Source: Octopus vulgaris (lineage: Eukaryota). From it: a DNA stretch of 64,000 nucleotides. Each line of letters starts with the position of its first letter. Position 1 is the first letter of the stretch. The position numbers and the translations under genes are program-made. Of this stretch, positions 17,371 to 57,692 are shown piece by piece. Location: positions 34,224,001 through 34,288,000 of the forward strand of contig OX597826.1 of the NCBI GenBank assembly GCA_951406725.2, in the 5' to 3' direction. A model generated the notes under the pieces. The model searched no databases. It had not been told where the DNA came from and saw only the letters and a list, made by a program, of their open reading frames with translations.

Positions 17371-17735
17371 CTGGAATTACGTGTACATACACGCACACAC
17401 AAATTTATGTCACGTCCTTATAATATTTTGATTATCTTTAAAGATGACTTCACTTATGCAGCATTTCCTAAAAAGAACCGCAGAACTGATTTTCCTCGTT
17501 TTAAGCAGAGATATACACTTGTCCATTATAAGCTGAACCTTTGCAAAGCCATTGAATAAGCTCAGATAAGTGGAATGGAACTGTTCATGAGAGCAGGCAT
17601 AAATATATATAACGTAATTTTTCCCTAGAAGCACGGGCCAACAAATGCGCTGTTTATTTCTTAAAACTCTCCTCTTTATCCTACTTTCTGATACTGCTGC
17701 TGCTGCTGTTACTACTACTACTACTACTACTACTG

Positions 17736-17771
<36 letters not shown>

Positions 17772-17854
17772 TTCCAGCTTGATACATAACAGATATTGAT
17801 CATTATAGACATAAACGTGGCTCTGTGTTCGTCTCTCTCTCTCTCTCTCTCTCT

Positions 17855-17937
<83 letters not shown>

Positions 17938-17938
<1 letters not shown>

Positions 17939-18187
17939 GCAGGAGTGGCTGTGTGGTAAGTAGCTTGCATACCAACCACATGGTTCCGGGTTTAGTCCTA
18001 CTGTGTGGCACTTTGGGCAAGTGTCTTCTACGATAGCCTCGGGCAGACGAAAGCCTTGTGAGTGGATTTGTAGACGGAAACTGAAAGAAGCGCGTCGTAT
18101 ATATACCTATATGTGTGTGTATGTGTGTGTGCGTGTGTGTTTGTGTGCCGGTGTTTGTCCCCACACCCACGATTGAAACAAATAAAA

Positions 18188-18190
<3 letters not shown>
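17938..18190 (+). mobile_element. SINE family A with 3' internal deletion, flanked by (TA)n
   Basis: ggcaggagtggctgtgtggtaagtagcttgc...gacggaaactgaaagaagc...tgaaacaaataaaagaat. Confidence 0.9.
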
Positions 18191-18227
<37 letters not shown>

Positions 18228-18770
18228 TTTCATAAATGAGGGCAAAGAAAAAATTTCTAATGCCAAATATGCCGAAAAATTGGACATATTGTCCATTAAC
18301 CATATAATTTTTTCACAATACGCACGCTACTCGAAAAAAGGTCGACAGAAATTTCTAAAAAATTCCATTATTACCATATCGGACCGATTTCAGAGTTAGC
18401 TACTAAGAGCCCTCTCTTCGTCAGTGATACATGTGGCAAAACAAATAAATGAGATACTTACTCATACCCATGGAAGAAGCAAATACTAAGTCATGGGCAC
18501 AACTAAGTACCCCAAATACATCCAAAATAGAAATACTCCAGCCCATTCGAGGCACGTGCGATTTGAACTGAGGCTCTCACAGAGTGAGTTAGTTAGTTCG
18601 GAAGTGAACGCTTAAATTTATATCAAATGTGAGGATAAAATTCTTTTCGAAAAAAAATATTTTCTCGAAAAAATTTTATCAATGGCCAGCATATTAAAAA
18701 ATACCTTTAACGGTTAAATTTATAAACAATTCATAAATGAGGGCAAAGGAAAAAAATTCTAATGCCAAAT
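18228..18770 (-). mobile_element. Non-coding HHR-bearing element (Penelope pLTR/retrozyme-like) with terminal direct repeat, period ~501 bp
   Basis: cataaatgagggcaaag...ttctaatgccaaat occurs at 18231 and 18732; contains HHR 18372-18429; homologous to 20101-20806; abuts (TA)n. Confidence 0.8.
18372..18429 (-). ncRNA. Type I hammerhead ribozyme
   Basis: Minus strand: tatca CTGACGA agag...ctct GAAA tcgg-t-ccga TA tggta; intact core, stems I, II and III all pair. Confidence 0.88.
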
Positions 18771-18777
18771 GTGTGTG

Positions 18778-18985
18778 TGATATGATCAATAAGTATCCAG
18801 ATTGTTGCCATAGTAACGAAACCAAAGCATGCAGTGTGAAGCTGCTTGGTACACATTGACCTTTAACTCTGCTGTGCATGCACACCAGGTTTTCCAGCTC
18901 ACTTCCGCTGTTTACGACACTGTTTATAAGGAAGGTGAGTAGTGTGTGAAACAGCAACATTTTGGACTTACGACTCTCACTTTCT
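18778..18985 (+). mobile_element. Probable mariner-type 5' end fragment
   Basis: gatatgatcaataagtatccagattg resembles mariner TIR starts; truncates the HHR element; no partner TIR found. Confidence 0.4.
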
Positions 18986-18994
18986 CCATGCATA

Positions 18995-19180
18995 CCTACT
19001 CATATATACACGTACACACTCTTGACAACCAGTGTTGTGTTTACGACCCTGGAACTTAGCGTTTCGGCAAAGAACTTGGTAAAATAAGTAACCAATTAAA
19101 ACAATTCTTTCGACTACAATTCTCCAAAATGGTTCTCCGTGATGACAGTAGTCCGATGATTTGATAAGTAAAAAGTAAGA
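18995..19180 (-). mobile_element. SINE family A 3' half, degenerate (body reads on + strand; orientation uncertain)
   Basis: cttgacaaccagtgttgtgtttacgaccctggaacttagcgtttcggcaaag matches the family A 3' half as written on the + strand at 49358-49412. Confidence 0.4.
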
Positions 19181-19231
19181 CATATATATATCAATATAAA
19201 TGCATGTACATGCGTAAGTACGTATACATAC

Positions 19232-19282
<51 letters not shown>

Positions 19283-19342
19283 CATACATACATACATACA
19301 TACATACATGTATACATACATATATGTATGATTATACACACA

Positions 19343-19498
19343 CAAGGAGTTGCTAAAAAAATTCCAGGCTTTGCGTAAAAGAAAATGCAGGCGGATCATT
19401 CCAGCGGTCCTTCAGTTTCCTAAGGAACTTGTAAGATTTACCCTCCAACCAGGCTTTTCGTGATAGTCTTGAAGCCAGAAGTTTTCAACACCCCCTCG
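19343..19498. mobile_element. Mariner-derived MITE/deletion derivative
   Basis: Imperfect TIRs caaggagttgctaaaaaaattccaggctt / aagccagaagttttcaacaccccctcg, followed by TA. Confidence 0.65.
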
Positions 19499-19558
19499 TA
19501 TATATACATATGCTTGTGTGTCTGTATGTGCACGTATGTATGTATGTATGTATGTATA

Positions 19559-19936
19559 CACTACCGTCAGAAATTAATTAGCACCCTTGATTTGCTCTTC
19601 ACTCAAGGTATGTGCTGTCACCTAGTGGCCATATCTCGAACTATTGCTTTGTTGCGAGTTCACTGTTGCGCAGAACGATGACGTAACTTTGTTTGCAGAG
19701 CAGTTTGAGAGTCTACAGCCTTATGATGTTGACATAGCAGTGCAACAAATTGGAGTGCAGATGCAGACAAATCTTCCTTTGTTTAATAGATATAGGTAGC
19801 GCCTCGCAAGGACCGAAATCACACCATACTAAGTTTTCTCATCGCGTAAGACGTTTTGAACAGCTCATAAGGTTAATTGATTTAACATATTTAATGTAGA
19901 AATTTGAGAAGTGCTAATTAATTTCTGACGCAAGTG
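19559..19936. mobile_element. Tc1/mariner-superfamily MITE
   Basis: 26-bp TIRs cactaccgtcagaaattaattagcac / gtgctaattaatttctgacgcaagtg with TA on both sides. Confidence 0.88.
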
Positions 19937-19954
19937 TATATATATGTATGTATG

Positions 19955-20007
<53 letters not shown>

Positions 20008-20072
20008 GTTTAAATATTTGTTGTGCAAGATTTTTTATTGGCTAAACTGGCAATATGACCATTCCGAAATAT

Positions 20073-20104
<32 letters not shown>

Positions 20105-20231
20105 CTTATAAGCAAGGGCTAAAGAAAGTTTTCTAAAGCCAATATACTGAAATCCACGTTTAATCTACTTGCTACAGAAAGTTGAACTGAAATGCAGGCA
20201 ACTCTACCTTTGGAACATTTAAATTTCGTTA

Positions 20232-20292
20232 TCTTAATATTGAATCAATTTCGGAATCAACACTATAAGTGTTCGTTCGTCTTCAGTTAAAC
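20232..20292 (-). ncRNA. Type I hammerhead ribozyme (left arm)
   Basis: Minus strand: tttaa CTGAAGA cgaacg-aacac-ttata-gtgtt-gattcc GAAA ttga-t-tcaa TA ttaag; first stem II pair is a C-C mismatch. Confidence 0.75.
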
Positions 20293-20517
20293 TTACGAGA
20301 GAATATAAGTGAGATACTCACACGTGCCTCTGGAAAACAGCGGAAGCGAATAACACAAGCACATCTGAGTAACCCCGTTATATGCAAAAATAAAAGTTCG
20401 TAGGTTAAGTCTCAGAACAACCTGTTGACTTGCCGCCGCTACATATTGTAGTGGTTACAAGTCCCCCTGCAGCAAGCAGTAATTAGTTTACTACTATTAA
20501 AAGGGATGTAGCCTTTT

Positions 20518-20578
20518 TCTTAACTGAAGACGAACGAACACTTATAGTGTTGATTCCGAAATTGATTCGATATCAAGA
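20518..20578 (+). ncRNA. Type I hammerhead ribozyme (right arm)
   Basis: tcttaa CTGAAGA (stem II 20531-20557) GAAA ttga-t-tcga TA tcaaga; predicted cleavage after 20572. Confidence 0.75.
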
Positions 20579-20808
20579 TAACGAAATTTAAATGTTCCAA
20601 AGGTAGAGTTGCCCGCATTTCAGTTCAACTTTCTGTAGCAAGTAGATTAAACGTGGATTTCAGTATATTGGCTTTAGAAAACTTTCATTAGCCCTTGCTT
20701 ATAAGATATTTATAATTTTAACCGTAAAGGTTCTTTTAATATACTGCCACAATTCCTGATGGAGTTTTTTTCTGTAGAGAAAAAGGCTACATCCCTTTTA
20801 ATAGTATA

Positions 20809-21187
20809 CTAGCAGTATCGCCCGGCGTTGCTCGGGTTTGTAAGGGAAATAACTATAAAGCATGTTTAGAGTTATAGCCAAAAAATAGCAAAAAAATGGG
20901 AAAAAAATGATGGTAAATTTTTTTAGAGTTAAAAAGGTCGAGTTGCGTCGCCTAGACAGTCTGTGGTTTGTCTTTCTGATTCTCGACCCCTTGTCGAATT
21001 TATCGATTTTTTTCAGAACTGGGGGGACTTTTCAAAATTTTCGCTGCGTTAGTTTTGAATTATGACATTGGGCTATGTGTGTGTCAAGTTTCATCAGAAT
21101 CGGTTGAAAGCCGTGGTCAGGGTGAGGGTACAACCTGACAGACACACAGACACACAGACAGACAAACTGCCGTTTATATAGAGAGAG

Positions 21188-21188
<1 letters not shown>
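20809..21188 (-). mobile_element. Non-autonomous Helitron
   Basis: Minus strand starts TCtctctatataaa, has a (CTGT/GT) microsatellite, and ends with hairpin cccgagcaacgccggg followed by CTAG; inserted between A and T with no TSD. Confidence 0.85.
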
Positions 21189-21219
<31 letters not shown>

Positions 21220-21393
21220 CTACATTGGTATCTATGCAACAGGAAAAATAGAACTGAAATATGAGTAAATGTATATCTTTATTAATATTTAGCAGAAGGA
21301 ACTGCTGGCTCAATGTCCATGAGTTTGATACGTACCATCGCATAAAACTTTCGGAATTTGAGTGGCTGTTTAAGTTCTGTTAAATATTAATAA

Positions 21394-21439
<46 letters not shown>

Positions 21440-21616
21440 CTCCCTAATATTATTATTATAATATATATATTCACGCACTATACTTGATAAATCCCATTGG
21501 ACTAGACAACTCTACAAAAAGTAAATCTTACTTGTATAAATACAACTAGATATGCACATGTAAACACACGCATATATATATGTGTGTGTATGCATATATA
21601 TATACATACGGACATA

Positions 21617-46638: not shown

Positions 46639-48906
46639 TATTTTATAAATTTGTCATATAGACAGTACAGAGAGCTTTGCGAGCTGGACAAACACATTAA
46701 TGAATGAAAATGAATTATAATGAATAAATGAGAGACGAAACCCAACACCCACCGATTGGATTTTTCTCGAAAACATATTTTCTTATTTTTTTAAAAATCA
46801 ATATAAGGTTTCGAACCTTTTACAAGGAGGAGGCACTAAAACCTCTTACTTAACATATTTTCTTTTTTCTTTCTTAAAACACAAAATTGAGGTTATAAAC
46901 CACTACAGAATAGTCCAATAAGGTGAGGTTTCAAAGTCTGTAACGAGGGTCTTTCCCCTCCTACTCTTCGGTATTTTCATCATTATCTTCACCACCTACT
47001 CATCGATATATTCATCATTATCTTCAATGCCGCTTGAGTTCCTGTATCCCGCCATTTCCTATGCCTCACTTATGTAGGACATGTAAGTCGTGTAAGGGCC
47101 ACCCGGCCATATGCGACACTCCTCCCCAAATCCTTTAATCCTTTCCCACAAGGGAAACCTTATGACTTCCACAGCTATCTGCGGAGGCCATTCGGGATCC
47201 CGTGTGAAGGGCATATCTACGGTTTCTTTAAGTTCTTCTACTATTTTTCCACCTCCCCGCCCTTGTAGAAAAATATAATTAATTGATCATCTTTTAAGGG
47301 TGGGGGTGGTTTCTTCCACCGTGGGTGGCACAACTTCGGGACATGCAGTCGGCACATCATCTCCCTGCTGAGATGACCCGTTCTTCTTCTTGCCTTTTTT
47401 CCTTTTCTTCCTGGCTTCGGGAGAGTGGAGCCCTTCCGCTTTGTCCGGAGACTCTCTCCCGCCTCCCGAAGCCTTAGGTTCCTTCGGCGGGCAACTATTG
47501 TTGCCCGCCTTCTTCCTTTTTAATCCTTTTTGAGTTGAGGAGGCTGAAGCTTCCTCAACCACATCCACCTCTCCCTTTGACGGGGTAGGGGAGGTGGCAT
47601 CTGGTGACTGTTCCAGGACCTTACCATGGTCCTGGGGGCAGTTCCTTTTAATGTATACTGGCTGCAGGCACGAGTGACACTTTGGGGGGACGTCCCTCAA
47701 GTATCACCGGATACATGCAGCCAGTCATTTTCAAGAAATCTGGAAAAACCAGTTCTGTTGCGGCCGATGGGGTCCTCAGTGTCAAAATCGCTTTTGACCC
47801 TTCCCAATCGACCGCCGGCAATACTCTTACATTTAAGAGCCTGGGCCCGCCATCTGCCAGTCCCCGTCGGATGGTATCTTCAATCCAATCCGCTTCTGTG
47901 CCCGGGGGAAGCCCACATATCCAGGTTCGTATTAATTTTCTTCCACAATATGACGGGAGAAACAGGATTTCCTTGCCTTCTAAAGGCTGACTCGCAAACT
48001 GGCGAGCCTTTTCCCCGTTGTCAAACAGCAACCATACGGTTGCATGTTTGACACCACTGGATTTTACAGAGGACAAATGTTCTTTAAGTTCATTTTTTAT
48101 GACTTGTTTTGGGAAGACGGTGATGGAATTAAGAACTTTAGAATATATTCTAAGTACCACCGTCTTCTCTTCCATATCTTTTAACCATTGCTTAGGCGGG
48201 TTAATTACCCACTCTAAGACATGTCAAAAAAACAGTTCAAAAGTAGTTCAAAAGACAGACTGCCAAAAAATTAAACCGAATAAAAATAAAACAATATAAA
48301 GGGGAGGGGAGGAAACTGAAATTAAAGTAATGAAAAGAATGAACCAAAACTTTTTAGAGAGAAAGAAATAATAGAAGGGAAAAGTAAAACAAAAATCTCA
48401 CAAATAGCACAGACAGGGAATACTTTGTATAATACTCCAAAATGGTAATCCAAATGGCTTATTTCATTCTATTTTTTTTTGGCGAGATACGCCCACTAGA
48501 ATTCACAAGAAGAATTTTCCAAAAAATTCTCAATTCACCGTTACGGCCAAAATTTAACACAACTGTAAGACAGTTAAAAAATCATTCTAAATTTCTTCTA
48601 GGTACTCCTTAACAGGAACAACATTATTTTCAAACAAAAGTTTGGCAGGATACGCCTACCAAACCAATAATTTTCACAATTAAGTGAATAATGTTTTCAC
48701 TCAGTCTCCAGCAGACTAGAGCCTAGTGAGGACTTGTTGCTTGTAAACAATAATTTGCAACATACAACAGGTCCCCATTAGACCCCCAAATTCTTACCTT
48801 ACGGCTGAGCATTCAAAAGTCTTCAATTTAAGACGGCTTTCAAAAACACGTCTTACATCTTCGGTGTCAAGTACAACACTGACTTGCACATACGCAGAAA
48901 CAACCT
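46639..48906 (-). mobile_element. ORF1-only non-LTR retroelement (half-L1/Tx1-like), 2268 bp, 15-bp TSD
   Basis: TSD gtaagcaagctactt at 46624-46638 and 48907-48921; single gag/ORF1-like frame; A-rich 3' end; no EN or RT recognisable. Confidence 0.85.
46996..48175 (-). pseudogene. L1/Tx1-like ORF1 (gag-like) with CCHC-type knuckle; one frameshift, in-frame stops
   Basis: ORFs 47648-48175 and 47287-47700 join by removing one base of the G6 run 47684-47689, giving YPVILEGRPPKCHSCLQPVYIKRNCP; a K/S/P-rich linker follows; the frame stays open past TGA 47287 to TAG 47059 and TAG 46996. Confidence 0.8.
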
Positions 48907-57338: not shown

Positions 57339-57655
57339 TTATATAATTAGGGCTTAGTAAAATAAAATAAATTACTTTGCCACATACTGAACTTAGTAGA
57401 AATAGCAGCCCCAAAAATTTTTTTTAGCCGTTTCTACTACTTAAAGAAAATTTCTCTCTTTTCTTTAAGTAGTAGAAACGGCTAAAAAAATTTTTTTTGG
57501 CTGCTATTTCTACTAAGTTCAGTATGTGGCAAAGTAATTTATTTTAATTTACTAAGCCCTAATTATATAATGTAATATTTTGAATTCGCCTTAAATGGTC
57601 CTTTTACATACTGAACACTTGGTGAAATTGATTAATTAATTTTACCCTCAATTGT

Positions 57656-57658
<3 letters not shown>
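57339..57658. mobile_element. Fold-back element related to the 18.2/20.1-kb family, no HHR retained
   Basis: 112-bp arms 57339-57450 / 57459-57570 with an 8-nt loop, then a tail; ttcagtatgtggc...taagccct...ggtccttttacatactg parallels ttcagtatattggc...ttagccct...ggttcttttaatatactg at 20659-20746; TA tracts on both sides. Confidence 0.85.

Positions 57659-57692
<34 letters not shown>

Follow-up and report, generated by a model that had tools for sequence, protein, structure and literature searches.

The window, that is, the whole 64,000-nucleotide stretch of Octopus vulgaris DNA analysed (contig OX597826.1), carried between 18,190 and 18,771 on its minus strand a short non-coding unit with a hammerhead ribozyme, and two related insertions further along. 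Unit positions are numbered u1 to u501 on the minus strand, u1 being 18729 and u501 being 18229. The features were:

18229 to 18729, minus strand: full 501-nt unit, differing from the family majority at no more than 4 sites
18730 to 18771, minus strand: stub left of the upstream unit by 5' truncation (about u460-501), the apparent direct repeat, adjoining a (TG)n run
18190 to 18229, minus strand: fixed 3' end A (u501), beyond which the (TA)n target tract follows
18622 to 18729, minus strand: 108-nt tail segment (u1-108); the fixed 3' end B of other copies is equivalent to 18622
18372 to 18429, minus strand: type I hammerhead, from the motif scan and subfamily covariation
18429-18425 with 18376-18372, 18424-18418 and 18417-18392, minus strand: stem I, core CUGACGA and stem II, respectively
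18391-18388 and 18387-18379, minus strand: GAAA and palindromic stem III
between 18377 and 18376, minus strand: predicted cut (u353/354), cleavage triplet AUA
18686 to 18695, minus strand: 3' strand of predicted helix P1, the conserved tail motif (u35-44); truncation of the upstream stub has removed the pairing strand
18266 to 18275, minus strand: 5' strand of P1 (u455-464); its partner would be in the next unit, missing here
18633 to 18683, minus strand: long predicted hairpin directly before end B
20105 to 20804, no single strand: insertion with two arms, from a related family (the 20.1-kb element), the inverted arm ending at its own end A and the forward arm at its own end B
57340 to 57660, no single strand: distant relative with two arms, lying in (TA)n and sharing the junction fold, from the junction model

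The repeat of about 40 bp that had been predicted at a distance of about 500 bp was real: its copies began at 18229 and 18730 (spacing 501 bp), were 42 to 44 bp long and were 93% identical over 44 nt, with a single indel. Its reading as a terminal direct repeat, a structural feature, did not hold. Repeat length varied among family copies, and the outer edge was an arbitrary 5' truncation point; 145 mapped 5' ends were scattered from u35 to u490. The repeat is the stub of a second unit, broken off where reverse transcription stopped, and the window copy is a single, 5'-truncated end-A arm of 543 nt (1.08 units). The unit had a GC content of about 33% (base counts) and no LTR; as predicted it was non-coding, the longest ATG frame in the tripled unit being 41 aa, and it contained no RT or GIY-YIG frame. 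The window copy had one ribozyme and cannot itself release a monomer for that reason; two consecutive complete ribozymes, taken to mark an active copy (Li et al.), were present at 10 other family loci. Having a single ribozyme and no complete junction fold (the upstream junction had its 5' strand cut, and the downstream junction was without its 3' strand), the copy is well formed yet likely a dead end.

The flanks were common repeats, which we take to be SINE-like on the left (17936-18100) and DNA-transposon-like on the right (18780-18960). A tRNA scan of 17500-21500 gave no match. Broken frames on the minus strand at 47287-48223 resembled by eye a LINE ORF1 with a cysteine knuckle.

The single minus-strand hammerhead (CUGACGA/GAAA) of the original prediction was recovered by a motif scan as the sole match within the window (none in 200 triplet shuffles, both strands), with 5, 4 and 4 pairs in stems I, II and III. 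The palindrome proposed for stem III (tcgg-t-ccga) was present, but its closure on a 1-nt loop is impossible. It formed no stable hairpin alone and was stable as a self-duplex (-13.9 kcal/mol), so that the predicted active form of the ribozyme is likely a dimer; such a stem III is described for dimer-dependent animal ribozymes (PMC4209133). The basal pair of stem II, usually G-C according to the same source, was A-U in this subfamily and G-C in one sister subfamily. Rfam did not detect the hammerhead at the gathering threshold or at E ≤ 10, and the matches that it returned at E ≤ 10 were microsatellite artefacts. Among 17 variants representing subfamilies, picked from 53 distinct ones, 7 of 17 pairs had two-sided change, and 96.9% of cells paired compared with 26 to 45% in slid controls. 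Judged by this covariation, the ribozyme is preserved across subfamilies via compensatory change.

A DNA search of the 2.8-Gb genome gave 3,134 candidates, sister subfamilies included, of which the best 40 scored were 95 to 100% identical and dispersed over many contigs. The conserved tail motif had 2,604 + 674 exact matches (controls 0), and arms sampled by this motif differed from the majority by a median of 2.4% (n = 89 arms). The family is young, dispersed and inserted in (TA)n, and its copies bore out the predicted retrozyme-like unit with a periodicity of about 500 bp. Partial tandems were common, the maximum being 3 full units plus partials at one locus (L014), and 13 adjacent ribozyme pairs occurred in 10 of 147 family loci (duplicates included, in a sample partly chosen for full units). 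Target-site duplications, which exceed 4 bp when present in metazoan non-LTR retrozymes, were unreadable because the targets were (TA)n tracts.

Two fixed 3' ends, 108 nt apart, adjoined (TA)n: A at u501 and B at position u108 in the unit that follows. The tail, as had been suggested, is the beginning of the next unit. End B followed by (TA)n had 203 exact matches (control 0), and the sample consisted of 95 of the first 100 listed among them, five not having been fetched. Two arms, the second inverted and head-to-head with the first, were present in 61/95 of these insertions, and single arms in 34/95. The outer end of the opposite arm (n = 61) was A in 55, B in 0 and elsewhere in 6; the far end carried (TA)n in 81/95. 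Among distinct end-A loci (n = 23), 17 had an opposite tail-bearing arm and 6 were single. This pairing of A opposite B would fit one RT start site per target strand. In 9/53 two-armed insertions, against 3.7 expected (p = 0.009), the two arms broke at almost the same unit position, so that some insertions may have been joined by folding back.

The pair of fixed 3' ends, together with the arrangement in two arms, links the family to Penelope-like elements (PLEs). Partial tandems, an inverted, 5'-truncated, head-to-head arm and an optional tail at one end are described as PLE marks (PMC8557442, PMC3846280), and in vitro the PLE tail extends from one RT start site to the other, both target strands being cut and extended (PMC11167929).

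The noted similarity to the 20.1-kb element was confirmed (77% over 82 nt, E 9e-9); hammerhead stem III of that element was damaged in the window and intact in its family copies. The junction model also found another distant two-armed relative in (TA)n (L105:7150-7330). A relative of about 450 nt, family D (L111-L140, L103:900-996), had 674 motif matches; it carried a hammerhead of its own and shared the junction fold.

Single-sequence folds of five families (that of the window unit, the 20.1-kb family, two sister subfamilies and family D) shared a predicted arrangement spanning the unit junction: a closing helix P1 (9-13 bp), inner hairpins, then a long hairpin, then end B; end A coincided with the loop of the central inner hairpin. 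The arrangement was not seen in the single fold of one sister sequence without flank (L117). RNAalifold recovered P1 and two inner helices from 21 sequences. Two-sided change was present in 3/9 pairs of P1, and 96.6% of its cells paired compared with 35 to 43% in slid controls, most of its 3' strand being set by the search pattern; the inner helices had no two-sided changes among the 21 aligned sequences. A model built from the junction folds found two families outside its training set (57515-57625 and L105), both with P1 in different letters. The predicted fold is likely a docking signal for the enzyme that spreads the family.

Contigs of seven runs presumed to be RNA covered the unit; some had (TA)n flanks, and may represent read-through or DNA. 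Read-through by Pol III is disfavoured because the ribozyme strand had seven runs of at least 5 T. A word at about u158-166, which we take to be B-box-like, was not seen by eye in family D. An RNA-editing footprint was not supported: A>G and T>C changes on the ribozyme strand numbered 185 and 207 (p = 0.016 after base composition), and 106 and 127 without common sites (p = 0.18).

The genome also contains two very young PLE families that are coding and insert into the same target. Young Neptune-type PLEs had a 781-aa RT-GIY-YIG frame and a 479-aa frame upstream. Several young families of this type (L094:768-4471, the G000:C6:133343000 region; L368-L378) had such a separate upstream frame of 446-495 aa, without a convincing Pfam match in the one tested; many of their copies were intact. 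A young Hydra-type family (L201-L203, L388-L392) was inserted in (TA)n, and the first 27 of its 150 scored matches were 100% identical over 150 aa. Its protein was about 713 aa long, its type I hammerhead, canonical in the core, lay about 55 nt upstream of the element end, and it had little TA homology at end A. Copies of both types ended in (TA)n at two fixed sites, with a tail of about 70-80 nt in Hydra-type and about 30-40 nt in Neptune-type elements; an old Poseidon-type family was also present. The clade labels Neptune, Hydra and Poseidon rest on motif likeness and are partly presumed. One PLE locus (L212) closely matched the ends of Hydra-1_Obim (supplement of PMC8557442).

The search for a coding partner covered part of 6,136 GIY-YIG candidates, using GIY-YIG family and ORF1 searches for Neptune-type elements and motifs for Hydra- and Poseidon-type elements. 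Among the loci sampled, none of the three types had sequence similarity to the unit and no pLTR matched it, and the junction model R1 matched no PLE junction in 69 PLE loci. PLE fragments beside 7 family loci were rejected as partners, being separate insertions that lay downstream, distant, reversed or behind a (TA)n run. Near 60 tail-motif loci there was one RT match, downstream of a (TA)n run.

In Neptune-type elements a GCAU word upstream of end A paired with the ORF1 start codon region in 7/9 single folds, and in two lineages of P1 a matching GCAU/AUGC core was present. In the single folds the ORF1 start codon is predicted to be hidden within a helix that it forms with sequence preceding the 3' end; the helix was missing from the consensus fold of a 7-sequence alignment, which was out of register. 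End B lay inside the helix in Neptune and outside it in the retrozyme families. It is a tentative and rather doubtful proposal that the covarying, junction-only fold would act as a recruitment and dual-priming signal with which animal retrozymes hijack a Penelope-type enzyme, and would descend from the Neptune start-codon helix. If true, this would identify the partner and account for the mobility of tandem or circular RNA alone; it would also supply an RNA handle of about 200 nt for an in vitro test.

The best explanation (probability about 0.8) is a young, non-coding, 501-nt hammerhead family with a PLE insertion footprint, likely pasted into (TA)n by a borrowed Penelope-type RT-endonuclease. 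Because of that footprint, two arms and two fixed 3' ends, the family is a non-LTR retrozyme and a non-autonomous PLE, a known class. The anatomy, ends, arms and covariation of the copies are observed. In the cycle that we infer, a locus with at least two units would be transcribed, and hammerheads, likely dimeric, would cleave the transcript and excise a monomer, which would probably be closed into a circle. The enzyme would bind at the folded unit junction and nick the palindromic (TA)n target on either strand. Priming would occur at two fixed template sites, A on one strand and B, 108 nt on, for the other; each cDNA would run back a variable distance, sometimes over more than one lap, and the two cDNAs would be joined head to head. 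Counting against this explanation are the lack of an autonomous PLE similar to the unit among the loci sampled, the lack of a junction-model match in the 69 PLE loci, and the tail of 108 nt, which exceeds the published 30-40 bp.

The nature of the template separates this reading from its nearest rival. A cut linear monomer would limit the B arm to 256 nt and the A arm to 148 nt, and is ruled out by the arms that extended past the cleavage site (58/95 B arms and 29/61 A arms). The 5' ends were not piled at that site (5 of 44 local ends within 5 nt compared with 4.4 expected). Since arms crossed it without a pile-up, the template was circular or an uncleaved multimer. Minor alleles were shared within an insertion by opposite arms in 32/50 and by tandem units in 25/43 comparisons, against 6.9% between insertions (all variants: 24% within, 2.9% between), and both arms therefore came from one source. 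Folded as a circle, the unit had z = -5.2 on the ribozyme strand (60 shuffles), in favour of the best explanation; against it, the opposite strand also folded better than shuffles (z = -3.9). A circle step in the cycle is favoured, with moderate confidence. The same family and enzyme could instead use an uncleaved read-through multimer, or jump between linear RNAs, with no circle; the hammerhead would then be a retained part of the pLTR, dispensable for each round. This is a plausible alternative of lower probability, which the passage of arms through the cleavage site fits equally. At one locus on a small contig (L014, G000:C55:34436-37979), a private 28-nt deletion was carried by the first and third units of one arm but not by the second, an alternation that suggests a two-unit template and that one monomeric circle cannot yield. 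Mosaic haplotypes across copies also favour the multimer, as does the sole PLE tested in vitro (anole), which did not need ribozyme cleavage and used mainly unprocessed RNA as its substrate (PMC11167929). Counting against the cycle proposed above, 8/9 Xenopus retrozyme dimers failed to cleave (10.64898/2026.07.22.740005). Against the multimer, long donors were rare, as the adjacent ribozyme pairs above indicate, and 5' truncation would erode them; the compensatory change that holds the ribozyme across subfamilies also speaks against its being dispensable.

Two further readings concern what the copies are. If they were the 3' ends (pseudo-LTRs) of a long coding PLE so far unfound, they would resemble the 5'-truncated PLE copies that are common, with hammerheads near the 3' end, and the partial partner search leaves room for such an element. 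That homologues would all be ends of long coding elements, the outcome named beforehand as refuting the retrozyme-like unit, was not observed: 0/95 end-B and 0/23 end-A insertions reached upstream PLE coding sequence. Arms passing u1 always entered u501 of the same unit and never coding sequence, and the position of the PLE protein matches near 7 loci and of the one RT match near the 60 tail-motif loci likewise speaks against it; for this family the pseudo-LTR reading is largely refuted and very improbable. Single copies also resemble direct- or inverted-repeat elements, as expected for an LTR-type element or MITE with the 42-bp terminal repeat or the inverted arms as fixed termini and with mobility either as DNA or through an LTR retrotransposon. 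Yet repeat and arm lengths varied continuously among copies, the outer ends of two-armed copies differed (A and B), and the ribozyme was of type I, not type III. The end maps refute this last reading, which retains a negligible probability, and the borrowed-enzyme explanation is kept.

The copy itself is ordinary and its class is published; the value lies in the family, whose ends, arms and covarying junction fold are mapped. Together with the young PLEs, these make the partner and the choice between circle and multimer testable with a published in vitro assay. Literature searches found no paper on octopus retrozymes or on the junction fold; the covarying multi-helix junction fold and its possible Neptune origin are new with respect to the literature searched. 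The words hammerhead, ribozyme and retrozyme had 0 occurrences in the main text of the octopus repeat annotation PMC13282606, and the motif was absent from the supplement of PMC8557442, in which long sequence runs are abridged.

Among known systems, plant LTR retrozymes, as outlined in the introductions of PMC7229834 and 10.64898/2026.07.22.740005, share with the unit a non-coding body, a hammerhead and a circle-based model, but have a type III ribozyme in true LTRs and a 4-bp target duplication, whereas the unit has a type I ribozyme once per unit. Chlamys non-autonomous elements such as MRC1 (PMC8557442) are likewise non-coding PLE derivatives, with pLTRs and head-to-tail copies; they resemble their autonomous partner at the 3' end, whereas the counterpart of the unit was not found among the loci sampled. 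Endonuclease-positive PLEs, as described in PMC8557442, PMC3846280 and PMC11167929, share (TA)n targeting, a hammerhead a short distance upstream of the 3' end, a pair of start sites and the arm layout. They differ in that the unit has no RT/GIY-YIG frame and a tail of 108 nt as opposed to 30-40 bp. The unit also has a canonical core and a long stem II, whereas the local Neptune-type elements have degenerate motifs.

The closest likeness is to metazoan non-LTR retrozymes, of which the unit has the marks: a conserved-core type I hammerhead and a head-to-tail, non-coding unit of a few hundred bp with GC below 50% and no LTR. It has been proposed that animal retrozymes are non-autonomous PLEs, and their mobilisation is presented as a hypothesis (PMC7229834; 10.64898/2026.07.22.740005); the two fixed ends and the junction fold are not mapped in the accessible text of these sources. 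As described there, the type I hammerhead and the short, low-GC, non-coding unit are shared, as are tandem and solo copies, coexisting PLEs and a strongly self-paired predicted circle. The unit of 501 nt is longer than the tested invertebrate retrozyme circles (170-400 nt) and within the vertebrate range (51-972 bp). Metazoan retrozymes form long arrays, whereas the octopus copies are mostly dispersed, shorter than 2 units and two-armed.
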